Source of the DNA: an uncultured Elusimicrobia bacterium
Lineage (GTDB): Bacteria > Elusimicrobiota > Elusimicrobia > 2-02-FULL-39-32
Length of the DNA stretch: 64,000 nucleotides
Assembly: GCA_964523525.1 (NCBI GenBank)
Contig: CAZFYO010000001.1
Span: forward strand, 65,068 to 129,067
Reading direction: 5' to 3'
Below the pieces are notes generated by a model. The model was not told where the DNA came from, made no database searches, and saw only the letters and a list, made by a program, of their open reading frames with translations. A program made the translations under genes and the position numbers. Below, one piece after another: positions 23,616 to 52,761 of this stretch (position 1 is its first letter; each line of letters starts with the position of its first letter).

Positions 23616-23644
23616 TTGACAAAAGGGGGCATCCCTGTTAAAGT
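23616..23644 (+). promoter_or_regulatory. Near-consensus sigma70-type promoter
   Basis: TTGACA (23616-23621), a 17-nt spacer, then TAAAGT (23639-23644), in a region with no credible ORF. Confidence 0.5.
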
Positions 23645-24196: not shown

Positions 24197-24592
24197 ATGA
24201 ACAAGAAGACGAGCCATCGTTGGATTGTACTATTCGCCGCCGTCTTATCGACGGGGTTCCTTTTTGCCGTGGGGGAAACGCCCACCCTCATCGATGAGGT
24301 CGTGAACTACCCCAATCCCTTTGACAGCCGCCGCGAGGACACCACGGTTTCCTATCGCCTCATCCAGGATCTGCCGGTCCGGGTCCGGATCTACGATTTG
24401 TTCGGCTACCAGGTCCGCGAACTGTACTTCCATTCGGGCTCTATCGGCGGGCAGACCGGCATCAATACGTTCCGCTGGGACGGGACCGACAGCGCGGGCC
24501 AGAAGGTATCCAAGGGCGGCTATATCTGCATGATCACGGTGGAAGGCGACCAGCCCACCCGCTCGATCCGTAAGATAGGAGTGGTCCATTAA
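24197..24592 (+). CDS. Small secreted protein consisting of a signal peptide plus one FlgD-Ig/T9SS-CTD-like beta-sandwich
   Basis: 131 aa with a signal peptide (WIVLFAAVLSTGFLFAVG). NYPNPFDS...VRVRIYDLFGYQVREL...FRWDGTDSAGQKVSKGGYICMITVEG matches the FlgD-Ig / Por-secretion-tail pattern. Good RBS (AAAGGGGAG). Confidence 0.7.
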   Translation: MNKKTSHRWIVLFAAVLSTGFLFAVGETPTLIDEVVNYPNPFDSRREDTTVSYRLIQDLPVRVRIYDLFGYQVRELYFHSGSIGGQTGINTFRWDGTDSAGQKVSKGGYICMITVEGDQPTRSIRKIGVVH

Positions 24593-24603
24593 GTAACCGA
24601 TTT

Positions 24604-26220
24604 ATGGCGAACCTGAAACGCAGCCATCGCCGCGCGAAAGTCCAGGGCCTGATCAAGGTCCTGCACGGCGCTTTGCTGTCGACGGCGGTCCTGGCTTCCA
24701 CCGTTTTCGCCGCGGGCGATACGGGCGGCCAGGTCGCGCAGTTCATGTCCTTCGGAGCGGGCGCTCGCTCGCTCTCCATGGGCCGCGCGTTCTTCGCGGT
24801 TTCCGATGACGCTTCAAGCGTTTACTCCAACCCGGCCGGCATGACCCAGCTTGAAAAGAAGGAGATCGGCTTCATGCAGGCGACCGTGGGCCTCGATTCC
24901 CAGCTGACCACCATGAACTACGTCCACCCTTCCAAGAAGGGCTGGGTCTGGGGCATCAACATGACCCAGATGAAGACGGGCGGGTTCGAGAAAGTGACGG
25001 TTAAGAGGAACAGCGCAGGAGAAATTTCGGAGCTCAAGAAGGGGGGCGATTTTTCGGACAGCAGCACGGGCTACATCTTCGGGTTCGGTAAAAAGGTGCT
25101 GAACACCCTGGCCGTGGGCATGTCGATCAAGCAGATTTCCCGGCAGCTGGACGATTCCGCCGATTCCGTCATCACCGCGGACGCCGCGGCGCTGTCCTAT
25201 CCCATGACCGACAATGCCAACTACCGCCTGGCGTTCGGCATCCAGAACATCTTCGCGATCCAGTCCGGCGATACCGATGACAAACTCCCGCTTTTGATCA
25301 AGGTCGGCAATTCCTATAAAGGCTTGAAAGACCGGATGCTGCTGGCGTTCGATATCACGCAGAACTTTACCCGGAACGTGACGGAGTGGAACATGGGCGC
25401 GGAATACTGGGTCTGGAAATACGTGGTGCTGCGGGCCGGCGTGGAAGGCAACCCCGGTTTGCGCCAGTCGAGCTTCGGACTGGGACTCCGCGTCAAAGGC
25501 GTGAACCTGGACATCGCGCAGGGCCTCACCGATTTGGGCGTTTCGTCCCGCATGGGCGCGTCCTGGAAGTTCGGCAAGTCGGTCATCGCGAAACGCGAAG
25601 ATACCGCCCGCCGGCTGATCCAGGAAGGCATCGCGGCGTACCAGCAGGGCAACTACGTGCTGGCGCTGGACCGGTTGAACCGTTCGCTTGATCTCGACCC
25701 GACCAACAACGATATCCGCACCCTGGTGGCGCGGCTCTCCGCCGTCGTGACGACGATGCCGTCGGCCGCCGGCGACAACGAAGTGGCCGGCATCATCCGC
25801 AAATCCATCCAGGATTACCTGAAAGGCGACAACAAGTCCGCCATCAATTCTCTGCGCTACGCTTATCTCGAAAAAGACCCGACCAACGAGAAGCTGCTCC
25901 AGGTGCTGAACAAGATCGAGAAGGAAGCCCGCGAGAAGATCACCGAGCGCGCCGATCAGAAGAAGAAAGGCTTCTCCTACATCGACCAGAAACTCTACGA
26001 CGCCCTGCAATCGATTTACGACGCGAAGTACGACAAGGCCATCATCCTCCTGCAGGAAGTGCTGGATCTGGACCCGCAGAACATCGAGGCCATGAAGCGT
26101 TTGGGATCGGCATTCTTCCTGATCGAACAAAAGGCCCAGGCCAAGGAAGTCTGGTCGCGCGCCATGGAGCTGGACCCCTCGGATCAAGTTATACAACAGT
26201 ACTTGAATCAGATCCCTTAG
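24604..26220 (+). CDS. PorV-like outer-membrane beta-barrel with a C-terminal TPR extension
   Basis: 538 aa with a signal peptide. Carries the motif GAGARSLSMGRAFFAVSDDASSVYSNPAGM. The barrel ends ...RMGASWKF at about aa 325. About 200 aa of TPR-like repeats follow (GNYVLALDRLNRSLDLDPTN, KYDKAIILLQEVLDLDPQN, AQAKEVWSRAMELDPSD). Confidence 0.75.
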   Translation: MANLKRSHRRAKVQGLIKVLHGALLSTAVLASTVFAAGDTGGQVAQFMSFGAGARSLSMGRAFFAVSDDASSVYSNPAGMTQLEKKEIGFMQATVGLDSQLTTMNYVHPSKKGWVWGINMTQMKTGGFEKVTVKRNSAGEISELKKGGDFSDSSTGYIFGFGKKVLNTLAVGMSIKQISRQLDDSADSVITADAAALSYPMTDNANYRLAFGIQNIFAIQSGDTDDKLPLLIKVGNSYKGLKDRMLLAFDITQNFTRNVTEWNMGAEYWVWKYVVLRAGVEGNPGLRQSSFGLGLRVKGVNLDIAQGLTDLGVSSRMGASWKFGKSVIAKREDTARRLIQEGIAAYQQGNYVLALDRLNRSLDLDPTNNDIRTLVARLSAVVTTMPSAAGDNEVAGIIRKSIQDYLKGDNKSAINSLRYAYLEKDPTNEKLLQVLNKIEKEAREKITERADQKKKGFSYIDQKLYDALQSIYDAKYDKAIILLQEVLDLDPQNIEAMKRLGSAFFLIEQKAQAKEVWSRAMELDPSDQVIQQYLNQIP

Positions 26221-26271: not shown

Positions 26272-28239
26272 TTGAATCACGCGGATCAAAATCGGGGGTC
26301 CTTGCGACTGGCCGATTTTTTTATTTTCGGGCGGATTTTCCTGCTCGCGGCCGCGCTCGTTTTTGCCTGCAAACCCATTTTTTCCGAGGACGCGCCGCCC
26401 AAGGAGCCGGGCGAGTCGGAGCTGATCGAGCGGCAGAGGATCATGGAGCGCGATCTCGAAGCGCGTATCCAAAACGTCCTGAACAAGACGCTCGGGCCCG
26501 ACCAGTCGGAAGTGAAGGTCAGCATCAATTTATCGGTGATGAAGGACGTCAAGAAGAAGTCCGGATCGGGACAGCAGAAAAAACAGAAAGAAGAAAATCC
26601 TCTGGGCGACACCAAATTTATCCTGCCGGGCGTGCCCGCGCCCAAGAACGTGGGCAAGGAAAAAGAGCCCGAGAACGTCACGAAGCAGCAGGCCGAACAG
26701 GAGCGCGAGCAGACGCAGATCAGCTTCAAGGTCATCACCTCGAAGCGCGAAGCCGTGGTCTTTTACAACGAGAAAATGAAAGCCAAGGAGGCGGAAGCCA
26801 AGCGCGCGGTGATGGCGCTGACCGACCTCAAGGACGAAGAGCTCAAGTTCATACCCGGCAAGTTCTTCACGTCGGTCTCGACGTACTGGGAAGAGTTCAT
26901 CAAGGACCCGAAGAACCTCATCTTTTCGGCCTTGCTTTTCCTCCTGCTCCTCCTCATCCTGTGGCTCTTCATCCCCCTCACCAGCTTTTTCAAGAATTAC
27001 ATTACGGCCATGAAAGAGAAGGCCGGGATCGAAGTGAAGATGGAATCGTCGAGCGAAGACGAGACCGATGCGAACAGAGACGGGCTCTCGCCCGAGGAGC
27101 TCGCAGAACGCGGGCTGCTGGGCGAAGACGGGAAGGAGGGTGAGGGAGAAATGGCGAAGAAATACGCACCGTTCGAATATATCACCGAGGAGAATTTGAA
27201 GCGCCTCCTGGGCGTGTTCCGCAAGGAGCCGCCGCAGGTCATCGCGCTTGTTCTCTCTTACCTGAAACAGGACCTCGTGAAGACCATCTATTCCGAGCTC
27301 CCCGTCGACCTCCAGGTGAAAGTCGCGGCCGAGGCCAGCGCCGTGCGCCAGGCGACCGAAGAACAGGTCCGCATGGTCGATGAAAACATCAAGGCCAAGA
27401 TTGATTTCGTGGTGGGCGGCGTGGACAACCTCATCAAAATTCTGGAAGAAGTGGATTACAAAATCCGCGACAACATCCTCGAATATTTGATGAACCACAA
27501 GCCGCAGCTTTACGAAAAAGTCCGGTCCAGCATTCTGCTGTTCGAAGATTTCGTGAAGTTCCCCGACCCCGCGGTGCAGACCATTTTGCGCGAGCTGAAA
27601 ACCGACCAGCTGGCGCGGTGCCTGCGGAACGCGAGTCCGGAGCTTCTGAACAAGTTCATGACCAACATGTCGCAGGGAGGCGCGGCGCTCCTGAAGGAAG
27701 AAATGGAGTTCGGCCGGCCCGTGAGCGACGATCAGATCGAGATGGACCGCCAATCGGTGATGAACAGCGTCAAGCAGATGGAAAGCGACGGAAAAGTCGC
27801 CATCCGCGAAAAGAAGAAGATTTCCGTCTTCGAATCGGAAGACGCGACGTCGCCTTTGACGCCCAGCATGCCGGACGAGTCCGGTTCGCGGCGCGGCGGC
27901 AAGGGCCCGGGACTGGGATTGCCGTCGGCGGCTCCCGCGCCGGGCGCCGGAGTTTCGGGCGCTGCCGGAGAAGCCGGGAACGAGGCCGCGTCCTATATTT
28001 CCTACGGCGAACAGCTCTACGCGGAAGAAAAGTTTGATGAAGCCCTGACGTACCTGCAGCACGGGGTCGAGCAGGACCCGAACAACGCGGCGGCTTATCA
28101 GACGATGGGCCACTGCTATTACAGCTTGAGCATGCCCACCGAGGCGCTGCAGTGCTACGAGTACGCGCTGTCGCTCGCGCCGGGCGACGAAACGCTCCGC
28201 CAGTGGGTGGAGCAGTTCAAGCAGAGCGTCGGAGCTTAA
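26272..28239 (+). CDS. Bitopic membrane protein: FliF/YscJ-like ring-building motif (periplasmic) + FliG middle and C-terminal domains (cytoplasmic) + TPR tail
   Basis: 655 aa, TTG start with RBS AAGGAAAGAAGAGG. TM1 is aa 16-35. The periplasmic segment IMERDLEARIQNVLNKTLGPDQSEVKVSINLS resembles the FliF segment ALEGELARTIETLGPVKSARVHLAMP. TM2 is aa 215-240. Aa ~298-512 align by eye to FliG: KEPPQVIALVLSYL vs EHPQIIATILVHL, and NMSQGGAALLKEEMEFGRPVSDDQIE...MESDGKVAI vs NMSQRAADILRDDLANRGPVRLSQVE...LAETGEMVI. TPR spans aa ~573-650. Confidence 0.8.
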   Translation: MNHADQNRGSLRLADFFIFGRIFLLAAALVFACKPIFSEDAPPKEPGESELIERQRIMERDLEARIQNVLNKTLGPDQSEVKVSINLSVMKDVKKKSGSGQQKKQKEENPLGDTKFILPGVPAPKNVGKEKEPENVTKQQAEQEREQTQISFKVITSKREAVVFYNEKMKAKEAEAKRAVMALTDLKDEELKFIPGKFFTSVSTYWEEFIKDPKNLIFSALLFLLLLLILWLFIPLTSFFKNYITAMKEKAGIEVKMESSSEDETDANRDGLSPEELAERGLLGEDGKEGEGEMAKKYAPFEYITEENLKRLLGVFRKEPPQVIALVLSYLKQDLVKTIYSELPVDLQVKVAAEASAVRQATEEQVRMVDENIKAKIDFVVGGVDNLIKILEEVDYKIRDNILEYLMNHKPQLYEKVRSSILLFEDFVKFPDPAVQTILRELKTDQLARCLRNASPELLNKFMTNMSQGGAALLKEEMEFGRPVSDDQIEMDRQSVMNSVKQMESDGKVAIREKKKISVFESEDATSPLTPSMPDESGSRRGGKGPGLGLPSAAPAPGAGVSGAAGEAGNEAASYISYGEQLYAEEKFDEALTYLQHGVEQDPNNAAAYQTMGHCYYSLSMPTEALQCYEYALSLAPGDETLRQWVEQFKQSVGA

Positions 28240-28248
28240 AGGATCGAC

Positions 28249-31200
28249 ATGGCGGACATCAGAGACAAGATCAAGACCTGGCTGAACAAGTCGCAGGATG
28301 AGGCGGCCGCCGCGCGTCCGCCCGCGTCCGGCCAGGCTCCGGGCCAGGCGCCCGCGCCGTCGTCCAAGACGCCCGAGGCGAAAGTTCCCGAACCGAAAGC
28401 CTCCGAACCGGAAGAGCCTCTGGATCTGACCGTGACCGAACCGAAAACCACGGAGCCCGGCAGCCGCCGCAACGCCGCGATGAGCCGCATGTCTTCCGCG
28501 GAAAAGGGAACCTATTTGCTGCAGGAACAGTCGGACGCGGAGAAAAAGCTGGCCGAGCTGACCCAGGAGCTGGGCGACGTCCGCAGAAAATTTCACGACG
28601 ATATCCGCAGGAAGGAAGAAGAGAAGATCAAACTTTTCGCGCACCTGGCCCAGGCGGACCAGAAGAGCCAGGCTTCCATCAGCCAGCAGCAGGCGGCCAT
28701 TGAAAAACTGCAGCGCGAAAGCCAGATGGAGATCGAGGCGCTCGAAAAACGGCTTCAGGAAGAAAGCCGCGAATGGGCCGGCGAGATCGAGGCCATCGAA
28801 AAGAACAAGGGCGAATATTCCGCTGCCGGGGACTTGAAGCGGCAGGAACTGGAAATGCAGGAAAAGCACCGCATCCAGGACCAGCAGAAGATTTTAGATC
28901 AGCTGGACGGCCAGATTGATATGGTCAGAAATAAAATTGAAGGCGAAAGAAAGAAATATGAGGAGCGCATCCGAGTGATCGAAAACGACAACCTTTCCAT
29001 CAAATCCCAGATCCAGCTCAAACAGGCGACCCAGCGGACGCACGAGCAGAAGCTGGTCGAGGAATTTTCGAGCGCCCAGACCGATTGGGAGGCCCGCATG
29101 AGGGCTCTGCAGTCCCAGATGCAGGCCGAAAAGCAGAAGTGGCAGGAGGCTCTGGGTCATAAGGAAGCCGAGTTCCGGGCCATCAAGTCCGAATTGGAAA
29201 AGAAAGATTCCGCCATGAAATTCGCCCTGAAGAGCAAAAAGGAAGACCTGCTTTCCGCGCTGGCGCGCGCCGAGGCGAAGCTCAAGAGCCTTTCCGATGA
29301 GGCCAGAAAAGAAAAGATCGAGTACGAAAAGGATTTGAAGTTCCGCACCGACGAAGCGGAGAAGCTGAAAGTCGAGCTGATGCTGCTCGATTCCCAGCTG
29401 AAAGTCGAAAGCGAAAAGGCCGAGTCCTCCATTTTATCCCTGCAGCAGGAAGCCAACAACAAGATCTCGTTCCTGGAAAGCAAAATCCAGGAGGAAAGCC
29501 GCATCGGCCAGAAGCAGGTGGAAGAAAAGAAACAAGAGATCGACAACCTGGCGCTCCAGTTCGGCATTAAAAAGAGCTCTCTCCAGGAAGAATTCTTGCA
29601 GAAGAAAGCCGATCTGGAAAAGCGCAAGAAAGAGCTTCAGGAAGAGCTCAAAAAAGCCATCCGCCTGCTCGAGAAGGAGCGGGAGGACCACCGCATCGAA
29701 GTCGCGGAGCGCGACGCGGTCATCGCCAAGATCAAGCAGGAAATGGGCAAGAGCTCGGACGAAATGGCGAAGAAGCGAGAAGAGTTTTTGGTGAGCATGG
29801 ACGCCCAAAAGCAGGAAATGGCGGCCAAAATATCCGCGCTGGAAGAGCGCGTCAAGATTGAGAAGCAGGGACTGAACGAGCTGCTGGGCCGGGAAAATCA
29901 AACCCTGATGGAAAAGAAGGCGATGCTTTCCAAGGAACAAGCGCAGGTCCAGCACGCGGTCAAAAAGCAGGAGGACGAGCTCCATTTTGAGATCACGCCC
30001 ATCAAGAACCAGATCATGGACCAGCGCAACCGCCTCGAGCAGGAGCGCGCGTCGCGCGAAAAGATTTTAGGCGCCAAGGACCAGATTATCCAGAACCTGC
30101 AAAAGCAGAAACAGACGCTTCAGGAAACGATTTTCAATTCGCTGAGCCAGCACCAGGGCCTGATAGATAAGGAAAAGGGCAAGGGCGCAGAAAAGATCGA
30201 CGAGCTGCATAAGAAGTGGGAAGTCGAGAAGAGCACTTTGGAGCAGGCGATCGCCAGCATCCGCCGGGAATACGAAAACGTGCAGAATGAAGTCGCGAAG
30301 CTCCCGCCCCAGGCGGAGTCGCAGCTGAACCTCTTCATGACCGCGCACAAGAAGGAGCTGGAGTCGCTCCAGCAGCTCCACCAGTCCGCCGTCAGCCAGC
30401 GGGACCAGGAAGAAAAACTCCATCAGAACAAGATGGCGCAGATGCAGGCGAGAGAAGACGAGCTCGCGAAAGAGCACCAGTCCCTGCAGAACAAATTTGA
30501 GGAAGCGCGACGCCGCCAGGAAGAGCAGATCGCCGAACTTCACAAGAGCCAGCAGAAACGCTCGCAGGATGCGGAGCTCGAAATCAAAAAGGCCCGCGAC
30601 GATTATCAGGCGCTCCTGAAATCGTCCGAGCAGGAATTGGAAACGCAGAAGAAATCCCTGGCCGATAAAAAAGCCGCTTTTGAAACCGACCGGCAGACCC
30701 TGGAGGCCGATTGGAACGAGAAAAAGAAAGGCCTTGAGTCCAAGATCACTGAAATCCGGGGCCAGTACGAGTCGCAGAAGGCGATCTGGCAGAAGGCCCT
30801 GGCCGACAGCACGGCTCACATCCGCGGCCTCGAACAGAAGCTCGAGCATCAGAAGAACGAACATCAACGCACTCTGGAAGCCCTCGAAGCCCGCAAAAAA
30901 GCCCAGGAATCAGATTTTGCCGCGAAAATGGAAGATCTCCGCCGCCAGAAAGCCGGGGCCGGTGATGAGCAATCCACGAAGCTCAAAGAAAAGAGCGACA
31001 ACATGGCCGCGCTGGACCGGGAGATTCAGGATTTCATTCAGCAGTCGCAGACCGATGCCGCGAACCGCAAGGCGGATATCGAGCGCCAGCAAAAAGAGTT
31101 GGAATCGCGCAAACAGGGTCTGCAGAAGGAGCTGGAGCTCGAAAGCAAACGTTCTCCGGAACTGCTGGAACAGAAAGACCGTCAGATTCAGTCTCTGAAG

Positions 31201-33231
31201 ACCGAGCTCTCCGATAACGAAACGCGATTTAAGAACGAGTGGGAAAGCATGGAGTCCGAGTTCGCGGCGTTCAACAAGACGTCGGCGGAAGCGATCAGGA
31301 CTCTGGAAAAAGAGCTGCAGGACGGAGGGGCCTCCTTCGAAAAAACCCTCGCTGAAAGGAATTTGCGGGTCCAGTCGCTGCAGGAAGAGAAGAATAAGGA
31401 AGAGGTCAAATCCAACCAGGTTTTGACCCAGCTCACCAACGAGCTGAACAAAATGAAGGCCGCTTACGAGCTCGAGATCAAGGATTTGGAAAAGAAGATC
31501 GCTCAGGAAAAGGCGCGGTTCGAACAGCAGTTCAAGGTGCGCGAAGTCGACGTCGAAGGCCTGCAGAAAACCCTCGCGCAGAAGAAGTCGCAGAGGGACG
31601 CGGCCGTGGAATCGCGCAGCAAGGAGATCGAGCAGGAAAAGCGCCGGCTGTCTCTTAGAAAGGACGATCTTTCCAAGCGGATCGCCGAAGACCGCCAGCT
31701 GGCGCAGAAAACCGTGCGCGCCCGCGAAGAAGAGATTTCCAAAATCCAGGCGGAAATCAGCGTTCATAAGGAAGAGTTCCACGCCCAGGAATCCAAATTT
31801 AAGGAACAGATCCTCCGGGAACGGTCCAAATACGAGGGCCGCATCAAGGACCTGACCAAGCATTACGAAAAAGACATCGACTCCCAAACCCGTACGCTTC
31901 AGGAAAAACAGAAGGAGCTGGAGAAACTCAATCTGCAGCTTGGCAACTGGAACGAGAATGCCCGCCTCGAGGACGAAAAGAGCCGCGAGCGCTGGGAAGA
32001 AGAACGGCTCGGCTTTGAAAAGGAAATTCAGGAGCTGGAGTATCAGCTGGCCCAAGAGCGGACGTCCATCGACGAGGCGACCGAGAAAAAATCCGAGGAG
32101 ATCAAGCGGCTCACCGCGGATCTGGCGCGGCTCCAGCAGACCTATTCGGTCCAGCTGGCCGAGTTGAAACGCGAGAAGGACAACGTCGCCAACGAGGAAA
32201 CGGAGTGGGAGAACAAACTTAAAGATGAGAAAGGGCGGCTGGCGGAAGAGGTCCGCGCGACCGAGCGCGAGCTCGAGCGGATCAAGGTCCAGCTGGCGCT
32301 CAAAGAAACCCAGGTGAACATCGAGAAGCAGAAGAAGGAGCGCGAGATCCGCTGGGCGAAGCGGCCGCTGGAGTTCAAGCTGCTCGAGTTGAAACGCAAG
32401 CAGGAAGAGAAGGAGCGCGAAGGCCGCCGCCGGTCCGAGCTCGTGGAAGCGGAGCGGAAACGCCTCGTGGCGGAAATCAAGCAGCTCGATGGGTTGATTC
32501 AGGACGAATCGAAAAAACGGGATTCCGTCCTTTCCGGATACAAAGACGAGGTGAAACACCGCATCCAGGGCCTGAGGGAGCAGGTGAAATCGGACAACAC
32601 CTCCCTCGTGCAGATGTTGTCGGCCCGCCGGGAAGAGCTGACCGGATTAAAAAACGCGTTGAAGAGCATGGACCAGGTTTTGAAGGAGTTTGAGGGAGCC
32701 AGCCAGCCCGTGCATTTCGCGGAACTGGAAGACGAGATCGCGCAGCTGGAACAGGAGCTGGCCGCGGCCGCCGAGAAAGGAAGCTCTGGATCCGCGCAGG
32801 CCGAGATCAAGGATTTCCAGCAGGAGATCAAAAACAAGAACAGGAATATATCTCAGGAGCGTTCCAAGTCGGAAAAAATTTTATCGAAGGTCAAAGGAGG
32901 GCTGGATCCCTTCTTCAAGGCGACCGACCAGTTGAGCCAGGACGCCGCGGCCGCGCGAGAGAAGTCGTCGAAAGCGAAGGCCCTGATGGAACAGGGCATG
33001 CGGGCGTTCGCGGAAGAGCGGCTGGCCGAAGCCCAGAATTATTTCCTGCAATCGATCGATCACGATTCCCGCAACGCGGTCTGTTATCAAATGCTGGGGC
33101 TCGCGTCCGAAAAGATGAAAGATATCGCGAAGGCGCGCGGTTATTTCAAGAAAGCGCTGGAGCTGGAGCCCGGAAACCAATTTCTCAAAAATCATCTGAG
33201 CCAAATGGATCAAAGTAACAAAGGAGCATGA
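28249..33231 (+). CDS. Giant (1660 aa) coiled-coil protein with a Pro/Ala-rich N-terminus and a C-terminal TPR module
   Basis: About 1450 aa of nearly uninterrupted E/K/Q/L/R heptad-like sequence. N-terminal PPASGQAPGQAPAPSSKTPEAKVPEPKASEPEEP. C-terminal AEAQNYFLQSIDHDSRNAVCYQMLGLASEKMKDIAKARGYFKKALELEPGN (TPR). Starts 9 nt after the upstream stop. Confidence 0.8.
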   Translation: MADIRDKIKTWLNKSQDEAAAARPPASGQAPGQAPAPSSKTPEAKVPEPKASEPEEPLDLTVTEPKTTEPGSRRNAAMSRMSSAEKGTYLLQEQSDAEKKLAELTQELGDVRRKFHDDIRRKEEEKIKLFAHLAQADQKSQASISQQQAAIEKLQRESQMEIEALEKRLQEESREWAGEIEAIEKNKGEYSAAGDLKRQELEMQEKHRIQDQQKILDQLDGQIDMVRNKIEGERKKYEERIRVIENDNLSIKSQIQLKQATQRTHEQKLVEEFSSAQTDWEARMRALQSQMQAEKQKWQEALGHKEAEFRAIKSELEKKDSAMKFALKSKKEDLLSALARAEAKLKSLSDEARKEKIEYEKDLKFRTDEAEKLKVELMLLDSQLKVESEKAESSILSLQQEANNKISFLESKIQEESRIGQKQVEEKKQEIDNLALQFGIKKSSLQEEFLQKKADLEKRKKELQEELKKAIRLLEKEREDHRIEVAERDAVIAKIKQEMGKSSDEMAKKREEFLVSMDAQKQEMAAKISALEERVKIEKQGLNELLGRENQTLMEKKAMLSKEQAQVQHAVKKQEDELHFEITPIKNQIMDQRNRLEQERASREKILGAKDQIIQNLQKQKQTLQETIFNSLSQHQGLIDKEKGKGAEKIDELHKKWEVEKSTLEQAIASIRREYENVQNEVAKLPPQAESQLNLFMTAHKKELESLQQLHQSAVSQRDQEEKLHQNKMAQMQAREDELAKEHQSLQNKFEEARRRQEEQIAELHKSQQKRSQDAELEIKKARDDYQALLKSSEQELETQKKSLADKKAAFETDRQTLEADWNEKKKGLESKITEIRGQYESQKAIWQKALADSTAHIRGLEQKLEHQKNEHQRTLEALEARKKAQESDFAAKMEDLRRQKAGAGDEQSTKLKEKSDNMAALDREIQDFIQQSQTDAANRKADIERQQKELESRKQGLQKELELESKRSPELLEQKDRQIQSLKTELSDNETRFKNEWESMESEFAAFNKTSAEAIRTLEKELQDGGASFEKTLAERNLRVQSLQEEKNKEEVKSNQVLTQLTNELNKMKAAYELEIKDLEKKIAQEKARFEQQFKVREVDVEGLQKTLAQKKSQRDAAVESRSKEIEQEKRRLSLRKDDLSKRIAEDRQLAQKTVRAREEEISKIQAEISVHKEEFHAQESKFKEQILRERSKYEGRIKDLTKHYEKDIDSQTRTLQEKQKELEKLNLQLGNWNENARLEDEKSRERWEEERLGFEKEIQELEYQLAQERTSIDEATEKKSEEIKRLTADLARLQQTYSVQLAELKREKDNVANEETEWENKLKDEKGRLAEEVRATERELERIKVQLALKETQVNIEKQKKEREIRWAKRPLEFKLLELKRKQEEKEREGRRRSELVEAERKRLVAEIKQLDGLIQDESKKRDSVLSGYKDEVKHRIQGLREQVKSDNTSLVQMLSARREELTGLKNALKSMDQVLKEFEGASQPVHFAELEDEIAQLEQELAAAAEKGSSGSAQAEIKDFQQEIKNKNRNISQERSKSEKILSKVKGGLDPFFKATDQLSQDAAAAREKSSKAKALMEQGMRAFAEERLAEAQNYFLQSIDHDSRNAVCYQMLGLASEKMKDIAKARGYFKKALELEPGNQFLKNHLSQMDQSNKGA

Positions 33232-35252
33232 CCATGCCAGAGCTGCCGCCCAAAAGAATTCCGCCCCCGTTAGGAGGCATGAAACCCCCTATGAAAGCGC
33301 CCGGCGCGCCGGGACTTCCCGGATTGCCGGGAGCGAAACCTCCCATGATGCCCGGCCAAACCCCAGCGCTCCCTGGGGCCAGACCCGGCATGCCCGGCCA
33401 GCATGGAATGCCCGCCGCGAACGCTCCTTCCAGCGCGGTCATTGAGGAACGGCTCAGGAAGATGGAAGAGCACGCGCGGGAAATCGAAGATTCGAAGAAA
33501 AAACTGGAAAAATCCCTCGCCGAGATGGAGATCAAGCTCAAGGACGAGAAGGAAAAAGCGCTCTCGCAGGCGATCAAGGCCCGCGAAGAGGAAGCCCTTT
33601 CCCTCAAGATGGAGCAGGCGCTCAAGGAAATGCAGGACAAGGCGCGCGTCGCGCGCCGCGAACAGGAAATGGAAGAGTCCCGCGCCCGCGCCGAGGAAAA
33701 GGCGAAAGACCTCGAACGCAGGCTGAACGAAGAGCGCGAAGCCTGGGTGATCAACCTGAAGAAGCAGATGGAGATGCGGGACCATGAAACCAAGCAGGTC
33801 GAAGGCCAGATCGAAAGCCGGTTTCACGATCTCGAAAGGCGCTGGCTCGAAGAACGGTCGGCGCTGATCCAGTCGCTCAAGTCCAAAGAGGACGAGACGC
33901 AGGATTTGAAGCAGCGGGCGGACCGCGCGGAGATCGAGCTCCACCGGATCCGGGAAGAGTCGATCAAGTCGGTCGAGCAGGAGCGCCGGAACCTGGCGTT
34001 CGAGTTCGAGTCCCGCAAGGACGAATTGCTGCGCGAGAGGGATTCTCTCGCCTCGGCGCTGGACCAGCGCGAAAACGAGCTGATGTCGCTCCGCGCCCAG
34101 CTGGCGATGGTGGATTCCCAGGTCCGCATGGCGCAGGAATCGGCGCAGAAGGGCCTGAACGAAAAGGAACGCGCCTGGCAGATGCAGATCGGAGAGATGG
34201 ACCGCGAATTCTTCCAGCTGAAACAGACGCGGGACCGCCTCGTTACCGAAAACGAAACTTTGAAGGGCGAGCTGCGCGACGTCCGCGAGCGCGCCGACGC
34301 CTTCCAGCAGAAGATGAATGAATTGCGCCTCGAAGCGGTCCGGAAAGGCGACGAATGCGAGGCTTTGTCCCGGGAGCTTTTCACGGAGCGCCAGACCTGG
34401 AGCGGCAAGATCGAGGAACGCATCCTGATGGAGCGCAACCTCCAGGAAACGCTGAACGCGCGCGAAAGCGAGCTGGGACGGCTGAAAAGCGTGTCCGCGG
34501 CGCTGGAATCGCGCCTCAAGGAGCAATTTGAGAAAGAGCGCAAGGAAGTCGAGCAGGCCAACCTGCGGTTACTGCGCGAAAAAGAGCAGAGCTACGCGGA
34601 TCTGAAAATGATCTCGGAGAGGGATAAGAGCATCATCCGCCTGGACCTTCAGGAAAAGATCGCGGAGCGCGAGCGGGAAATCGCGGCCTTAAAGCTCGAC
34701 TTCGCCCATATGCGGGCCGACTTGCTGAAACAATTCGACAAGGATAAGGAAGCCGCCCAGCACCAGTTCCAGCGGGAGTTCGGCGTGCGCGCCGACCTCA
34801 TGCAAAAGGAGCTGGACGAGGCGCACCGCGCCATGATGTCCGAGCTCGAGGCTTATGACGGAAAGATCAAGGCCGAGGAAGCGCGCCATCAAAAGGAAAT
34901 GCAGTCCAAAGAAGCTGAGGTTGTCCGGGCGGCCGAATCGGTCCGCCGGATGGAAGCCCTGGTTTCGGAGGAGCGCGAAGAGCTGGCCAGGGACCGGAGC
35001 GCCATGGAGCAGAAATTCTCCGAGGACGCGGCCCGGCTGCGCGAAAACTTTCAGAGCGAAAAAGAGCGGCTGGAACGTCAGTTGAGCGAAGCCGCCAGCG
35101 CGGCCGGAGACGACGGTTCGGGACTGTATTTCGAGCGGGAAAACAACGACCACCTGTCGCTCGGCCAGCTGATCTGGAAGTACCTGACGCGGACCGTGAT
35201 CGTTATTAATTTCAGGGGCGTTCCCCGCAAGTTCAGGAAGGTGCAGGAATGA
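33228..35252 (+). CDS. Proline/glycine-rich N-terminus + ~550-aa coiled-coil protein
   Basis: 674 aa. The ATG overlaps the upstream stop (ATGA); an alternative ATG at 33234 has better spacing from AAAGGAG. N-terminal PPKRIPPPLGGMKPPMKAPGAPGLPGLPGAKPPMMPGQTPALPGARPGMPGQHGMP, followed by E/R/K/L-rich coiled coil. Confidence 0.7.
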   Translation: MTMPELPPKRIPPPLGGMKPPMKAPGAPGLPGLPGAKPPMMPGQTPALPGARPGMPGQHGMPAANAPSSAVIEERLRKMEEHAREIEDSKKKLEKSLAEMEIKLKDEKEKALSQAIKAREEEALSLKMEQALKEMQDKARVARREQEMEESRARAEEKAKDLERRLNEEREAWVINLKKQMEMRDHETKQVEGQIESRFHDLERRWLEERSALIQSLKSKEDETQDLKQRADRAEIELHRIREESIKSVEQERRNLAFEFESRKDELLRERDSLASALDQRENELMSLRAQLAMVDSQVRMAQESAQKGLNEKERAWQMQIGEMDREFFQLKQTRDRLVTENETLKGELRDVRERADAFQQKMNELRLEAVRKGDECEALSRELFTERQTWSGKIEERILMERNLQETLNARESELGRLKSVSAALESRLKEQFEKERKEVEQANLRLLREKEQSYADLKMISERDKSIIRLDLQEKIAEREREIAALKLDFAHMRADLLKQFDKDKEAAQHQFQREFGVRADLMQKELDEAHRAMMSELEAYDGKIKAEEARHQKEMQSKEAEVVRAAESVRRMEALVSEEREELARDRSAMEQKFSEDAARLRENFQSEKERLERQLSEAASAAGDDGSGLYFERENNDHLSLGQLIWKYLTRTVIVINFRGVPRKFRKVQE

Positions 35253-35911
35253 ACGAAGAGCTCGCCAGGCTGGGAAAAAACTGGGAAGGGCGCATCAAGT
35301 CGATACAGAAAAACATCGCGGCGTCGGAAGCCCGCATGATGCCGGCGCCGATAACGGCTGCTCCCGCGCGATTTTCCGCGCCGGAAACCGGGTTGAAGTC
35401 GCAGTTCGAGGAACTTAAGCAGAGCCTCGCCGAGTTCGCCGCCGAATGGGGAAAGAACCGCCCGGCGGCCGCCTCTGTTTCGGGGCCCGATACCGCCCGC
35501 ATTGACGCGAGGCTCGGGGCGCTCGAGAAGCAGTGCGAAGATTTCAGAAACGCGCTTTCGGAAGTGCAGAAGATCGAATCGTTCATGAAGGACGCGCGCC
35601 AGAAGCAGTATGAGACGTTCGTCGAGGACCGCGGCAAGCTCCGCGTGGACTATCTGGATTTGAAGCAGGAAGTGACGCAGAAGCTGAAGATCATGCAGCT
35701 GCGCATCGAAGACCTCCTCGCGGCCAGCGCCGCGCAGTCGTTCAAAGCCGTGGACGCGCCCGAAGGCGAGGCGCACGACGTGTCCCATCTGAGCAGCATT
35801 GCGGGGACGGAGGAAAAAGGGTTCCTGCAGAGGCTGGCCGAATGGTGGAACGAGCCGGTCCTATCTTTCTCGAAAGACGAGCCGAAGGACGGTCCGACGG
35901 AAAATTCTTGA
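35249..35911 (+). CDS. Hypothetical helical protein, last gene of the coiled-coil operon
   Basis: 220 aa. ATGA overlap with the upstream gene. Predicted helical or coiled segments. No family recognised. Confidence 0.6.
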   Translation: MNEELARLGKNWEGRIKSIQKNIAASEARMMPAPITAAPARFSAPETGLKSQFEELKQSLAEFAAEWGKNRPAAASVSGPDTARIDARLGALEKQCEDFRNALSEVQKIESFMKDARQKQYETFVEDRGKLRVDYLDLKQEVTQKLKIMQLRIEDLLAASAAQSFKAVDAPEGEAHDVSHLSSIAGTEEKGFLQRLAEWWNEPVLSFSKDEPKDGPTENS

Positions 35912-35976: not shown

Positions 35977-36576
35977 ATGGGAGCAGATGTTCTAGTCCTC
36001 AACCGCAACTTTTACGCCGTCCACATCACCTCATGGCGGCGAGCCCTCTCCCTTCTGTATTTAGACCACGCCCGCGTCGTTGATCAGGAATATAAAACCT
36101 ACAGCTTTGCCGACTGGCGCGAACTCTCCCAGCTCGTCGACGACAATCCCGCCGGCTACGTTCGCACTCCTTCTTTCAAGATCGCCATCCCCGAAGTCAT
36201 CGCGCTCCGGATGTACGACGAGCTGCCCGTTTCCGAAGTCAAATTCACCCGGCGCAACATCTACGAGCACTACAGCTACATCTGCTGTTACTGCGGCAAG
36301 AAATTCGCCACGAACAATTTGAACCTGGAGCACATCATCCCGCGCTCGCGCGGCGGACAATCGACCTGGAGCAACGTCGTGACGTCCTGCATCGCCTGCA
36401 ACATCAAGAAGGGCAACAAGCTTCCCGAGGAAGCGGGCATGAAACTTTTGATCAAGCCCTCGAAGCCCAAGTGGCGCGGGGCGCAGTCGCTCATCCTGCA
36501 CGCTTCGTTCAAGGTGAAAGCCTCCTGGCAGCGCTTCGTGGACGCCGCCTACTGGAACACCGAGATCGAAGATTGA
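35977..36576 (+). CDS. HNH endonuclease family protein
   Basis: 199 aa. CCYCGKKFATNNLNLEHIIPRSRGGQSTWSNVVTSCIACNIKKGN is a complete HNH/Zn-finger motif. RBS GGAGG lies 7 nt upstream. Confidence 0.85.
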   Translation: MGADVLVLNRNFYAVHITSWRRALSLLYLDHARVVDQEYKTYSFADWRELSQLVDDNPAGYVRTPSFKIAIPEVIALRMYDELPVSEVKFTRRNIYEHYSYICCYCGKKFATNNLNLEHIIPRSRGGQSTWSNVVTSCIACNIKKGNKLPEEAGMKLLIKPSKPKWRGAQSLILHASFKVKASWQRFVDAAYWNTEIED

Positions 36577-36737
36577 CCTCCGAACCCGAACTCCAGCCCG
36601 ATTCCGAAGAAGCGGTCAAGGCGGCGCGCAAAAAAGCGTCGCAGGTCGGCCTTTTGCTGGGCGCTCTCACGCTGGTCCTCGGCTCGCTGGTCTGCCTCTT
36701 CTACCTGCTTTATTTCAAACCCTGGAAATTCCAGTAA
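36573..36737 (+). CDS. Possible 54-aa single-pass membrane peptide
   Basis: A TTG overlaps the HNH stop. The C-terminal TM reads VGLLLGALTLVLGSLVCLFYLLYF. The ORF-track version (36471..) overlaps HNH by about 100 nt and is unlikely as drawn. Weak call. Confidence 0.3.
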   Translation: MTSEPELQPDSEEAVKAARKKASQVGLLLGALTLVLGSLVCLFYLLYFKPWKFQ

Positions 36738-36771
36738 ATATCTGAAGATAATTATCTGAACGGAGGACTTT

Positions 36772-37086
36772 ATGTCAAATCCCGAATCGGGCCAGAAGGC
36801 GGGACAGATGCAGATCGAAATCGACGACGCGACGGCGCAGGGCGAGTACGCCAACCTCGCGCTGATCAGCCATTCCGAGACGGAGATGATCCTGGACTTC
36901 ATCTTTATCCAGCCGCAGGCCGCCAAAGCCAAGGTCCGGTCGCGCATCATCACCTCCCCATTGCACGCCAAGAAAGTCCTCCAGGCCCTCGAAGACAACA
37001 TCAAAAAGTATGAATCCCGATTCGGAAAGATTGAAACGGAAAACCCGCCCAGGACCGACGGCCCCAACATCGGTTTTTACCACTAG
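36772..37086 (+). CDS. DUF3467-like small protein
   Basis: 104 aa. GEYANLALISHSETEMILDFIFIQP...ARVRSRIITSPLHAKKVLQAL matches my recollection of the DUF3467 pattern. Confidence 0.65.
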   Translation: MSNPESGQKAGQMQIEIDDATAQGEYANLALISHSETEMILDFIFIQPQAAKAKVRSRIITSPLHAKKVLQALEDNIKKYESRFGKIETENPPRTDGPNIGFYH

Positions 37087-51900: not shown

Positions 51901-52761
51901 ATGGGTGGAAAAATTAGGGGGCTTTTAACTTTAGGGCGCGAGAAATTTATTCCGCGTCCCTTTTTATTTTTAGGAGGCGACTTGAAACATTTTATTTTGG
52001 TGCTCTTAGGGGCATATACATTGATGCCAGGCATTGTTAAAGGGGTTGATATTTCTACCACAACCGCAAAGTTAGGGTGGGTAAGGTATGACGATAAAAT
52101 TGTTCTATATGATGCAAAGGGCAGCTCGATTAAAACTATAGAAACTAAAGAATATGATAAATCAGAAAAAGCAGAACATGGTGGTGGCGATGTTGTTGTT
52201 TATAGTTATCGAATTAGTGGTGATGTCTCCGAGTCTCATAAGTATGCATGGACCGTGACCGTAGAGGTAAATATGGTTGAAAGATGGCAGAAACAAATTT
52301 TTCGATACTTTGATGGTAGGGGGAATATGCTTTGGGAAAAAAATGGTGGGGCTCACGCCACAATTTCCGCCGATGGGGAAGTAGTACTATTATCTCATTG
52401 CGATCCCAATAGTTTAATGAATCTCACGGAGGGAAGCGAGGTGGCATATTGGGCAACGATATATTCAAGTAGTGGTGCTGAGTTGTGGAAATTTAGTGAA
52501 TTCTCTTTGAGGAATCCTGAAACAATATTTATTGAGAGAAACGGCCGATTTGGCTTTTTACGTAGTATGGTGCCAGAAAATAGAGTGATTTTTTTTGACA
52601 AACAAAAACAAAAAATATCTATATATAAAGGGTTTGGGAATGAAGTTTCAATAAATCATGAAGGATTCTTTTATGTTAAGAATCGAAAAAAAATCAGAGA
52701 CAAGTCAGGAAAAACTGTTCAAATAATTACCACTAAAGTTTTTGAGGGTAATTTTGACTAA
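51901..52761 (+). CDS. Hypothetical secreted protein (AT-rich block)
   Basis: ATG at 51901 with a strong RBS (AAGGAG, 7-nt spacer). Hydrophobic N-terminal segment HFILVLLGAYTLMPG. No family recognised. The ORF-track start at 51832 lacks an RBS. Confidence 0.55.
   Translation: MGGKIRGLLTLGREKFIPRPFLFLGGDLKHFILVLLGAYTLMPGIVKGVDISTTTAKLGWVRYDDKIVLYDAKGSSIKTIETKEYDKSEKAEHGGGDVVVYSYRISGDVSESHKYAWTVTVEVNMVERWQKQIFRYFDGRGNMLWEKNGGAHATISADGEVVLLSHCDPNSLMNLTEGSEVAYWATIYSSSGAELWKFSEFSLRNPETIFIERNGRFGFLRSMVPENRVIFFDKQKQKISIYKGFGNEVSINHEGFFYVKNRKKIRDKSGKTVQIITTKVFEGNFD

Follow-up and report, generated by a model that had tools for sequence, protein, structure and literature searches.

What role does a 1660-aa protein rich in E, K, Q, R and L play directly downstream of a FliG-like gene in an uncultured Elusimicrobia bacterium? 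The question arises from a 64,000-nucleotide stretch of its genome (the window), for which an initial annotation, made from the letters alone, had noted two adjacent coiled-coil proteins of 1660 and 674 aa. Both ORFs are real (Table 1). The larger product, P0001, contains 15.4% E, 12.6% K, 9.6% Q, 6.8% R and 9.9% L, and its helical rod measures ∼1460 residues (85 to about 1548), in agreement with the composition and the ∼1450 aa first estimated. The flanking Pro/Ala-rich N terminus and C-terminal TPR were also recognized correctly. All N-terminal indels of the rod family fall within the Pro/Ala-rich linker. In one relative (L039), the frame begins before the conserved start and carries extra hydrophobic residues there, most likely because the ORF was called too long. 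At its other end, P0001 has a two-repeat TPR tail: Pfam TPR_2 matches residues 1612-1643 (E 4.4e-6; 26.8 bits, cut-off 27), residues 1584-1655 match designed TPR chains in the PDB (E 2.6e-19), and tail-to-tail tblastn matches between the rod, barrel and FliF/FliG tails show 26-35% identity.

Table 1. Features of the rod locus (window positions)
Feature	Position	Strand	Basis or remark
131-aa secreted protein, little beyond a T9SS-type C-terminal sorting (FlgD_ig-like) domain	24197..24592	+	Pfam FlgD_ig E 7e-6
PorV/PorQ-family outer-membrane barrel, C-terminal TPR extension	24604..26220	+	NCBIfam PorV_fam 96 bits (cut-off 90); Pfam UPF0164 + TPR
Membrane FliF-like/FliG_M/FliG_C protein, C-terminal TPR tail	26272..28239	+	Pfam FliG_C 7.7e-28, FliG_M 7.3e-10, TPR
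Giant rod protein P0001, 1660 aa	28249..33231	+	ORF present as described
P0001 N-terminal basic-aromatic motif MADIRDKIKTWLNK	28249..28290	+	M-x-x-F-K-K in relatives (30 family N-termini listed)
P0001 Pro/Ala-rich linker, residues 15-84	28291..28500	+	Proline positions; length differs among relatives
Units 1-20, residues 85-1300	28501..32148	+	Single unbroken register; stack/column profile, leave-one-out block scores
Pro584, unit 9 column 11	29998..30000	+	P in 19/22 aligned members; unit and column unchanged in relatives
Gly828, unit 13 column 11	30730..30732	+	Pro/Gly in 71% of 17 short-class members
Pro970, unit 15 column 31, [W/Y/F]-P site	31156..31158	+	P in 21/22 aligned members; invariant in 8/8
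Window-clade-specific 4-residue deletion, approximate site	32122..32124	+	5/22 members; near residue 1292
Units 21-23, residues 1301-1483	32149..32697	+	Register shifted −4; block scores +29, +8, +20 at shift −4 only
Degenerate 24th unit and helix breaks, residues 1484-1573	32698..32967	+	Negative block scores; AF2 breaks 1485-87, 1510-13
P0001 TPR tail, residues 1574-1660	32968..33228	+	Homologous to tails of barrel and FliF/FliG protein
Second coiled-coil protein P0002, 674 aa	33228..35252	+	ORF present as described
P0002 Pro-rich head, conserved PPPLP-type motif PPKRIPPPLGG	33246..33278	+	PPPL(P)/polyproline in 5/6 orthologue heads; the called G177 frame begins further in
P0002 C-terminal motif, degenerate W-x-x-L-N-E-P-V-I-E-I	35169..35213	+	Orthologue comparison
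Third gene P0011, 220 aa, helical	35249..35911	+	No Pfam or NCBIfam match
P0011 C-terminal WWNEPV motif	35834-35869	+	Within third gene

The rod gene lies in a conserved module encoding, in order, a CTD-only secreted protein, a PorV/Q-like barrel-TPR protein, a FliF/FliG-TPR protein, the rod-TPR protein, a PPPLP-headed coiled-coil protein and a small helical protein. The first of these, which has NCBIfam matches to PorU/PorZ C-terminal regions and Por_Secre_tail, has a homologue upstream of the barrel in all seven relatives with flanking sequence; the barrel is 42-75% identical in L001-L004 and L012-L014, and orthologues of the FliF/FliG-TPR protein show YscJ_FliF_C matches. The FliF/FliG-TPR gene is directly upstream of the rod gene in 16 of the 17 genomes inspected, and rod orthologues are therefore not scattered without this neighbor. 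The second coiled-coil gene follows directly in 15/15 loci with downstream sequence. In the sole complete genome (G285), the rod gene adjoins the barrel gene, and about 443 kb separates them from the FliF/FliG orthologue, which is followed on its own strand, after about 0.5 kb, by a MotA-like gene. The FliG-like and giant genes, first described as translationally coupled, do not overlap: the stop codon of the former (TAA, 28237-28239) and the ATG of the latter (28249) are separated by a 9-nt spacer with AGGA. ATGA overlaps occur between the giant and second genes (33228-33231; a second ATG, at 33234, is better spaced) and between the second and third genes (35249-35252). Short contigs matching the operon at at least 99% identity, one of which crosses the FliG/rod junction, were found in four metatranscriptome runs of one study, which is a hint of operon expression, with DNA carry-over possible.

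The description of the rod as heptad-like did not survive analysis. Residues 85-1483 of P0001 have one coherent hydrophobic period of 3.59 residues (61/17), with a Fourier power of 12.98 compared with a shuffle maximum of 1.18 ± 0.22 (50 shuffles) and a harmonic at 2.26 (power 12.11), whereas a heptad peak at 3.50 is absent among the six strongest Fourier peaks. Autocorrelation is maximal at lags 61, 122, and 183, and helical phase is constant across 21-25 successive 61-residue blocks in 9/9 distinct orthologues tested. The unit consists of three hendecads and four heptads in the pattern 11-7-11-7-7-11-7 (17 turns), and P0001 contains 23 recognizable tandem units plus a degenerate 24th (spacings 61 × 20, then 57, unit 20 being shortened to 57 residues). 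Twelve of the 61 unit columns are at least 56% hydrophobic, with a spacing of 4/3/4/7; aromatic residues make up 42% of column 30, K/R 67% of column 37 and D/E 60% of column 38. Of the 17 seam positions in each unit, five carry mainly charged residues (K/R in columns 1, 37, and 51; E in columns 8 and 26). Repeat identity is 15.0% in register versus 7.6% out of register, and for every lag 61k (k = 1-16) the BLOSUM62 score lies between +0.26 and +0.44, versus about −0.5 at lag + 30; no 244-residue super-repeat is seen in the general sequence similarity of the rod. AF2 models of moderate confidence (pLDDT 73.6-75.9, pTM 0.32-0.38) contain helices at 1302-1484 (183 residues) and 696-903 (208 residues). 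The rod is a near-straight, amphipathic coiled-coil-type α-helix with a hydrophobic seam that repeats every 61 residues; its coherence, the Fourier contrast and these helices uphold the original call of coiled coil rather than disordered low complexity.

A period close to the 3.6 of an undistorted helix, together with a basic-aromatic N-terminal motif, could also describe a single straight helix that lies flat against the inner membrane in the manner of apolipoprotein- or perilipin-type 11-mers. We regard this as very improbable, because the hydrophobic stripe is narrow (by hand computation, the 13 main columns have phases within about 0.21 turn) and bordered by no less E than K/R, the 1464-residue rod has a net charge of −17, and the seam consists mainly of leucine and isoleucine, as it does in coiled coils. 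Self-association along the stripe would be expected, most simply as a parallel in-register dimer of ∼217 nm if fully extended (1460 residues × 0.1485 nm from helix geometry), close to the ∼200 nm originally calculated for a continuous coiled coil. In such a dimer, like charges would face each other at the five charged seam positions, which counts against it.

Rod length is nearly invariant across the phylum. Seven sequences of 1200 residues yield 1200 alignment columns with zero gaps at 18-35% identity, and about 1360 rod residues can be aligned with relatives that are 18-20% identical. Between reference residues 86 and 1444, a MAFFT alignment of 22 members shows length changes of just two kinds: an insertion of 244 residues (5/22), exactly four units of 61, and the 4-residue deletion (5/22). 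Rods come in 24-, 28- or 32-unit forms: the block spans 1464 (24 × 61) or 1708 (28 × 61) residues in the family, and 1952 (32 × 61) in one 2103-aa member. The 28- and 32-unit forms may stem from very few duplication events, in which case the "quantised" length would reflect history, not selection. The few prolines occupy fixed unit and column positions across relatives. The second coiled-coil protein serves as a within-operon control: it is anywhere from 656 to 1284 aa long in different relatives and lacks the 61-residue period, so that it is not giant in any constrained sense. P0002 has no match in Pfam, NCBIfam or PDB. Of this pair, only P0001 has a TPR tail; none is detected on P0002 by Pfam. 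A collagen-like G-X-Y run (GAPGLPGLPGAK, residues 26-37) is present as noted, but it comprises just four triplets and is not conserved among orthologues, making it an accident of the Pro/Gly-rich head.

The site of the 244-residue insertions suggested another geometry. They map to reference residues 794-824, beside Gly828, the geometric centre of the 24-unit rod (817-829), and they add an even number of units, as would be explained if each chain doubled back on itself midway, forming an intramolecular antiparallel coiled coil of ∼110 nm that brings the N-terminal motif and TPR tail together at one end. An apex at 829 would pair residue 85 with 1573, the start of the TPR tail; the Pro/Gly site at 828 is kept (Table 1), the seam pattern derived from the column profile is mirror-symmetric, and conservation is highest in the end units (1-6, 17-22) and lowest in the centre (10-14). 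The arms of SMC, MukB and Rad50 similarly have a conserved length and tolerate few indels; they are not known to have a strict short tandem repeat, unlike the rod, which in turn has no Pfam match to ABC ATPase head halves or a hinge. Folding back nevertheless appears unlikely. The deletion near residue 1292 is uncompensated on the opposite arm, the same Pro motif also lies off-centre in unit 9, and proline sites are asymmetric about the centre in 24- and 32-unit forms. Moreover, a search through every fold-back register for complementarity in core volume or charge gave no outlier (centre z −0.6 to +1.0; extremes ±3.5 among 433 registers), albeit with low power because it included only 15 sequences.

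Equal spacing could alternatively mean equal steps. The 24 units of 9 nm would then form a track or rack on which the FliF/FliG ring or its TPR tails dock, with a MotA/MotB-driven rotor moving along or moving the rod in gliding or surface transport involving the PorV-like barrel and CTD protein. Strict unit spacing, charged and aromatic residues conserved at particular columns, conserved gene linkage with a FliG torque-domain protein and with the barrel/CTD pair, and a genome (G000) with one MotA (264 aa)/MotB_plug pair and a single FliG_C (PF01706) match, namely the FliF/FliG-TPR protein, all fit such a device. However, orthologous units in the window clade are 34.6-38.1% identical versus 15.3-15.7% for paralogous units, which fits position-specific roles better than equivalent steps, the rod centre is poorly conserved, and motility, rotation and rod-ring contact are assumed parts of this model. 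We consider it distinctly unlikely, more so than folding back.

Near-straight non-heptad coiled coils are typical of exported fibres such as tetrabrachion, M proteins and Omp-alpha, and the module encodes an outer-membrane barrel and a FliF-like ring protein, so that a secreted periplasmic or surface fibre was also considered. This has very little probability in our view: no signal peptide is present at the 30 listed rod-family N termini, no FlhA export gate was found in the 96.6%-complete genome (G000), and in the FliF/FliG protein the TPR tail, which is similar to that of the rod, follows the cytoplasmic FliG domains. From the first two observations we infer that the rod is cytoplasmic.

Among known systems, the closest in kind are Scy and FilP of Streptomyces, DivIVA-related, intermediate-filament-like coiled-coil proteins; a 51-residue repeat was reportedly described for Scy by Walshaw et al. 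in 2010. Two papers describe Scy as a rod of >1000 residues with a long non-heptad, hendecad-containing coiled coil (PMC9858780) and FilP as self-assembling into striated filaments (PMC6599971), and to that extent these bacterial cytoplasmic rods resemble P0001. P0001, however, has no Pfam match to a DivIVA-type N-terminal domain, has a period of 3.59 with a 61-residue four-heptad/three-hendecad mix that is not hendecad-dominated, and belongs to a different phylum, where the rod has an exact phylum-wide length, a TPR tail and a FliF/FliG neighbor. AglZ of Myxococcus xanthus is a cytoplasmic gliding-motility coiled-coil protein of >1000 residues with an N-terminal receiver domain; the machine it works with spans the envelope, draws its power from a MotA/TolQ-family channel and has no known FliG. 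The rod would likewise be tied to an envelope machine, but it has no Response_reg match, and we know of no 61-residue unit or fixed length reported for AglZ. Tropomyosin and nebulin, the periodic rulers of muscle, resemble the rod in having a set number of equal quasi-repeats, considered to fit a partner lattice or to determine length; the rod is unrelated in sequence and organism and has no known partner lattice, and its unit (about 9.1 nm) matches, to our knowledge, no nameable bacterial filament repeat. The upstream gene, with FliF-like, FliG_M and FliG_C regions, and the MotA/MotB pair recall the flagellar rotor. Unlike rotors with a FliM/FliN C-ring, no FlhA was found, and the FliG-adjacent genes encode coiled-coil rods, not FliM/FliN-type proteins.

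The rod family was found in 31/401 genomes and 24/123 genera, only in Elusimicrobiota among those searched. FliG_C is present in 175/401 genomes, including all 31 with a rod, so not every such ring requires the rod. Rod-bearing bacteria have no flagellum, yet the rod gene is nearly always beside that of a flagellar-rotor-like membrane protein. Our literature searches found no paper describing this rod.

Taken together, these findings confirm what was initially observed and partly support how it was interpreted. P0001 belongs to a family of length-defined α-helical rods that had not been described before and is restricted to Elusimicrobiota. We somewhat favor, at little better than even chances for the explanation as a whole, that it acts as a cytoplasmic strut, ruler or scaffold of fixed length for an envelope machine of non-flagellar FliF/FliG type. 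The rod would dock to the ring, itself probably driven or held by the single MotA/MotB pair, through its conserved end units or TPR tail, while its N-terminal motif may bind membrane or a partner and the two downstream proteins may attach via their conserved terminal motifs. If this reading is true, the rod would be a fixed-length component of a FliF/FliG ring machine in bacteria without a flagellum.

As the initial annotation had it, two adjacent ORFs encode a 1660-aa rod protein (P0001) and a second coiled-coil protein of 674 aa (P0002). Both belong to a conserved module. A composition count shows P0001 to be rich in Glu, Lys, Gln, Arg, Leu and Ala, and its Pro/Ala-rich N-terminal segment corresponds to residues 15–84. 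Its TPR tail is recognized by Pfam, where TPR_2 scores 26.8 bits (cut-off 27) alongside four other TPR families, and by 14 matches to PDB consensus TPR chains (E 2.6e-19, over residues 1584–1655, to 3.9e-4). Other than TPR, P0001 has no match in Pfam, and none in NCBIfam. At the opposite end of the rod, most of 30 N-termini listed display a short basic-aromatic motif (M-x-x-F-K-K or F-K-x-W-L-x-K). An ATG at 33234, 8 nt past an AAGGAG, may be the true start of P0002.

Features of the module and its surroundings in the window
Feature	Coordinates	Strand	Description	Basis
Sigma-70-like site	23616–23644	+	TTGACA, 17 nt, TAAAGT, with TG; 10/12 matches; ~550 nt upstream of module gene 1; possible operon promoter	sequence
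Module gene 1			131-aa secreted protein, essentially a T9SS-type CTD	Pfam/NCBIfam
Module gene 2			PorV/PorQ-family barrel with TPR extension	NCBIfam, 96 bits (cut-off 90)
Module gene 3 (P0003)	26272–28239	+	membrane FliF-like/FliG_M/FliG_C protein with TPR tail	Pfam
P0003/P0001 junction	28237–39 and 28249	+	P0003 stop TAA (28237–39), then AGGA, then ATG (28249)	sequence
Module gene 4 (P0001)	28249–33231	+	rod with TPR tail, 1660 aa	
P0001/P0002 junction	33229–31 and 33228	+	TGA (33229–31) overlapping ATG (33228)	sequence
Module gene 5 (P0002)	33228–35252	+	second coiled-coil protein, 674 aa	
P0002/P0011 junction	35250–52 and 35249	+	TGA (35250–52) overlapping ATG (35249) of P0011	sequence
Module gene 6 (P0011)	35249–35911	+	third protein, 220 aa	
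HNH endonuclease ORF	35977–36576		directly after the module	HNH_5, E 5.7e-19
GC dip	52001–56000		GC 0.39–0.46 versus 0.53–0.61 elsewhere, within the surface-protein ORF; may be recently acquired or repetitive	
Surface-protein ORF	52742–57808		1688-aa fn3/Big_7/M23-like surface protein	
Barrel gene	57805–58764		UPF0164/PorV-like, follows the surface-protein ORF	

P0001 had been described as heptad-like, a description that has to be replaced. A Fourier transform of hydrophobic residues over positions 91–1560 gives one sharp peak at 3.59 residues with a power of 12.98 (maximum of 1.18 ± 0.22 in 50 shuffles), and 3.50 is not among the six strongest peaks. This period and the harmonics at 2.26, 5.55 and 3.21 equal 61/17, 61/27, 61/11 and 61/19, respectively, and autocorrelation is maximal at lags 61, 122 and 183. 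The protein shows the amphipathic periodicity of the coiled-coil class (3.5–3.67 over a long stretch), with a phase that is constant over 21–25 blocks, and it departs from the canonical heptad pattern of 3.50 with occasional stutters in that the register moves by +4 every 18–25 residues in a regular 61-residue cycle. The period is 3.585–3.590 in every family member measured. Since an undistorted helix has 3.63 residues per turn, as stated in an excerpt of PMC9858780, a period of 3.59 would leave only a weak left-handed supercoil in the rod helices.

Laying P0001 out as successive 61-residue rows that start at residue 85 stacks its hydrophobic residues in common columns (positions within the unit) with zero indels. 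In the column profile pooled from nine orthologues, the spacing along the seam is 4,3,4,4,3,4,3,4,4,3,4,3,4,3,4,4,3, and the unit, which comprises four heptads and three hendecads, runs 11-7-11-7-7-11-7. Hydrophobic residues make up 56–87% of each of twelve columns, and five seam positions are mainly charged, with K/R in columns 1, 37 (67%) and 51, and E in columns 8 and 26; column 30 is aromatic in 42% of cases, and column 38 is D/E in 60%. Identity between units is 15.0% in register versus 7.6% out of register, and BLOSUM62 scores per position are +0.26 to +0.44 at all lags 61k (k ≤ 16) versus about −0.5 at lag + 30. Tandem Repeats Finder detects no 183-nt repeat left in the DNA, which argues that the units are ancient, and these sequence comparisons indicate that the 61-residue unit is a real, ancient repeat. 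Charge autocorrelation peaks at lag 244 (z 6.1 versus 5.5 at lag 61). A super-repeat of 244 residues is nevertheless not claimed, because BLOSUM similarity is no higher there (0.402) than at lag 183 (0.412), and a local maximum occurs in just 7/15 sequences.

A 1200-residue rod profile, searched against 1.84 billion representative proteins, gave 762 matches at E ≤ 1e-3, of which 40 reached E ≤ 1e-30, the strong full-length matches forming two length classes of ~1605–1637 and ~1851–1860 aa. Four weaker giant matches that were checked, P0044, P0049, P0058 and P0062, differ in period (63 or 74, or nothing at 61) and served as negative controls. The last of these, an unrelated 2758-aa protein from the representative library, is another long, near-straight coiled coil; its strong non-heptad period is 3.605, at a power of 16.7, and it lacks the 61-residue repeat. 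All relatives of the rod are MAG or metagenome sequences; those that are named are assigned to Endomicrobiia or 'bacterium' and are annotated at source as 'hypothetical protein' or 'tetratricopeptide repeat protein'.

The length of long coiled coils usually drifts. In the rod, ~1360 residues are indel-free at 18–20% identity, and length changes solely by exactly four 61-residue units. Seven rod segments from seven genomes (18–35% identity) align without gaps in exactly 1200 columns. A MAFFT alignment of 22 members contains only two length events between reference residues 86 and 1444, a 244-residue insertion (18 + 115 + 111 columns) in the 5 long members and, in the window's clade (5 members), the loss of 4 residues near position 1292; here P0034 lacks about one N-terminal unit, and P0031 lacks the TPR tail. 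Block scoring identifies 24 consecutive in-register units in the rods of the distant orthologues from G177 (residues 43–1506), G065 and G285 (both 25–1488), and in P0001 20 units followed by 3 at register −4 plus a degenerate 24th. The spans of these blocks are 1464 (24 × 61) or 1708 (28 × 61) residues, and 1952 (32 × 61) in a 2103-aa protein from G169. As a same-operon control, the second coiled-coil protein varies from 656 to 1284 aa. We know of few clearer sequence signatures in bacteria of a molecular ruler or a strut of fixed geometry than this fixed rod length. The four-unit step may reflect selection, or else history, should the longer forms go back to very few insertions.

Fixed prolines occur in unit 9 column 11, unit 13 column 11 and unit 15 column 31, and often in unit 23 column 28. 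P584 of P0001 is one such site, that in unit 13 is Gly828 in P0001, and that in unit 15 is Pro970 in P0001 and Pro in 21/22 members. Because the sites are displaced by exactly four units in the 28-unit form and eight in the 32-unit form, the rod can be written as 499 + n × 244 + 142 + 485 + 94 residues, where n takes the values 1, 2 and 3. P0001 fits the proposed family, whose members have rods of 24, 28 or 32 in-register units, fixed proline sites and usually a TPR tail. Conservation is highest in the end units (1–6 and 17–22) and lowest in the centre (10–14). The 244-residue insertions sit at the geometric centre of the rod and, together with the even number of units that they add and the central Pro/Gly site, they would suit a hairpin folded back on itself like an SMC arm. 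Other observations speak against this hairpin, which we consider unlikely: the 4-residue deletion is uncompensated, the proline sites are asymmetric, and a register scan for core volume and charge complementarity, of low power with 15 sequences, gave no outlier.

Few Pro and Gly interrupt the rod, which has seven prolines between residues 85 and 1560, and AF2 models, as predicted structures, support its helicity but not one particular quaternary arrangement. For residues 1301–1660 (single sequence, pLDDT 75.9), AF2 predicts a single helix at 1302–1484, breaks at 1485–87 and 1510–13, another helix that ends at 1601 and, in the TPR tail, three short helices. For the central eight units (residues 585–1072, 7-row alignment, pLDDT 73.6, pTM 0.38), it predicts helices at 586–682, 696–903 and 916–1071, with breaks at the window-specific PP686/687 and G903/G905 and not at the conserved sites.

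Among known proteins, those nearest to the rod are FilP and Scy, the latter with a 51-residue repeat, AglZ, SMC arms, and periodic muscle rulers of the tropomyosin and nebulin type. Scy/FilP/DivIVA proteins have a DivIVA-like N-terminal domain and a hendecad-dominated rod with a period of about 3.64–3.67, whereas neither P0001 nor P0002 has a Pfam DivIVA match at E ≤ 0.01 and the rod family is at 3.585–3.590. AglZ has an N-terminal response-regulator receiver domain, whereas P0001 has no Response_reg match in Pfam. SMC/Rad50 proteins carry halves of an ABC ATPase head at both termini and a central hinge, unlike P0001, in which Pfam finds TPR only and NCBIfam nothing. None of Scy/FilP, AglZ, SMC arms and muscle rulers is known to have the 61-residue unit and fixed length of the rod. 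No description of a rod family with this unit was found in the full-text literature among the matches listed, and a protein-cluster similarity search with the rod returned TPR clusters only (best score 0.87, threshold 0.9). A link to magnetosomes was dropped, since the excerpt of PMC12748827 names Elusimicrobiota and coiled-coil proteins but deals with other proteins and genes. The rod family is newly recognized among bacterial coiled-coil rods, and the machine around it may be new in kind. With its period of 61/17, the unit is a new regular solution in the heptad/hendecad repertoire and a good subject for structural work on, and design of, coiled coils.

To map the distribution of the family, a profile of the first six units was searched against 401 sampled Elusimicrobiota genomes, a search in which not found does not equal absent. 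It detected the rod in 31/401 genomes, 23/293 high-quality genomes and 24/123 genera, and found no case of it among the genomes searched from four large families (0/118, 0/47, 0/48 and 0/89). Gene order was inspected in 17 genomes (the window, L001–L004, G177, G065, G285, G181 and L032–L039). The FliG-like neighbour seen in the window recurs, a FliF/FliG-TPR gene directly preceding the rod gene in 16 of the 17, and a P0002 orthologue lies immediately downstream at 15/15 loci with downstream sequence. The exception is the one-contig genome G285, where it is the barrel gene that precedes the rod and a FliF/FliG-TPR orthologue, at 39% identity, is ~443 kb off, with a MotA-like gene ~0.5 kb downstream of it on the same strand. 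An apparent FliG-like/rod fusion and split rod at locus L003 (10198–16732) is an artefact of the record, in which N runs are read as X. At the same locus, a 199-aa ORF (19490–20089) occupies the place equivalent to that of the HNH endonuclease ORF. In the G065 lineage, a sigma-54-dependent response regulator (Response_reg, Sigma54_activat, HTH_8; locus L013, 16706–18097) is encoded just upstream of the module and may control the operon.

FliG_C was found in 175/401 genomes, including all 31 that are rod-positive, so the rod accompanies one subfamily of a commoner ring protein. Most FliG_C-carrying Elusimicrobiota have it in FliF-FliG fusion-type frames of ~640–690 aa, often several per genome. 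Some (e.g. G123, G064, G104, G062 and G170) have it in frames of canonical FliG size (334–356 aa), and a few lineages may be truly flagellated. In the window's own genome, which is 96.6% complete, FlhA has no match, FliG_C occurs once (in the operon studied here), and there are six MotA/ExbB-family genes. Its only MotA (264 aa)/MotB_plug pair lies outside the window on contig C15, at about 36230–36907 (loci L021 and L031), and is the candidate stator if the FliF/FliG ring is powered. That a stator-driven ring uses the rod as its track or rack seems to us quite improbable.

Wastewater and sludge runs contain near-identical DNA; the small-share DNA runs X13–X20 are set aside as evidence of habitat. 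Short contigs at least 99% identical to the operon, from four metatranscriptome runs of one study, touch all module genes, and one (28205–28455) crosses the FliG/rod junction. They offer a weak hint that the module is expressed, weak because DNA carry-over is possible and contigs cannot show a transcript; stretches of the module without such contigs, e.g. 33262–34103, carry no weight.

P0002 begins, as annotated, with a Pro/Gly-rich head of ~68 residues. The collagen-like G-X-Y run reported there, GAPGLPGLPGAK, is present in the window and is not retained in orthologues, whereas a PPPLP-type motif at the extreme N terminus occurs in 5/6 of the heads seen. No family match for P0002 was found in Pfam or NCBIfam, and no match in the PDB. 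Its first coiled-coil stretch (~280 residues) is 33–40% identical across the phylum, and Fourier analysis, in which its strongest peak has a power of 2.5 (shuffle maximum 1.13 ± 0.25), reveals no 61-residue period. The P0002 C terminus carries the motif W-x-x-L-N-E-P-V-I-E-I, degenerate in the window (LIWKYLTRTVIVINF), and P0011 ends in a related WWNEPV, found at no other C terminus in the window's genome.

Upon the observed repeat architecture, conserved length, fixed proline sites and synteny, in the absence of a detectable flagellar export gate, we place a reading that we consider somewhat favoured. The rod would lie in the cytoplasm and pack through its narrow seam, the simplest arrangement being a parallel in-register dimer. 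If fully extended, at 0.1485 nm per residue, it would measure ~217 nm, and the longer forms 254 and 290 nm. On the FliF/FliG-TPR ring it would function as a scaffold, strut or ruler whose length is defined. The terminal motifs of P0002 and P0011 would provide docking elements, as would three homologous TPR tails, one on each of three successive layers of the envelope. It is very unlikely that the rod is instead an exported fibre, and equally so that it is a helix coating the membrane. Beyond the strut, ruler or scaffold that we favour, a more speculative and rather doubtful extension is that the rod, as a cytoplasmic element, sets length in an undescribed non-flagellar rotary machine of the envelope. 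In such a machine, a FliF/FliG ring powered by MotA/MotB would connect outward to the PorV-like barrel and the surface CTD protein, and inward to the rod of 217, 254 or 290 nm, whose 24, 28 or 32 units of 9 nm would serve as a ruler or as the teeth of a rack. If this is true, the machine's spacing or travel would be set by the length of the rod, which roughly equals the width of such very small cells. The near-obligate linkage of rod and FliF/FliG-TPR genes, in genomes with a stator pair and without a flagellar export gate, provides a concrete handle on the role of non-flagellar FliG rings.
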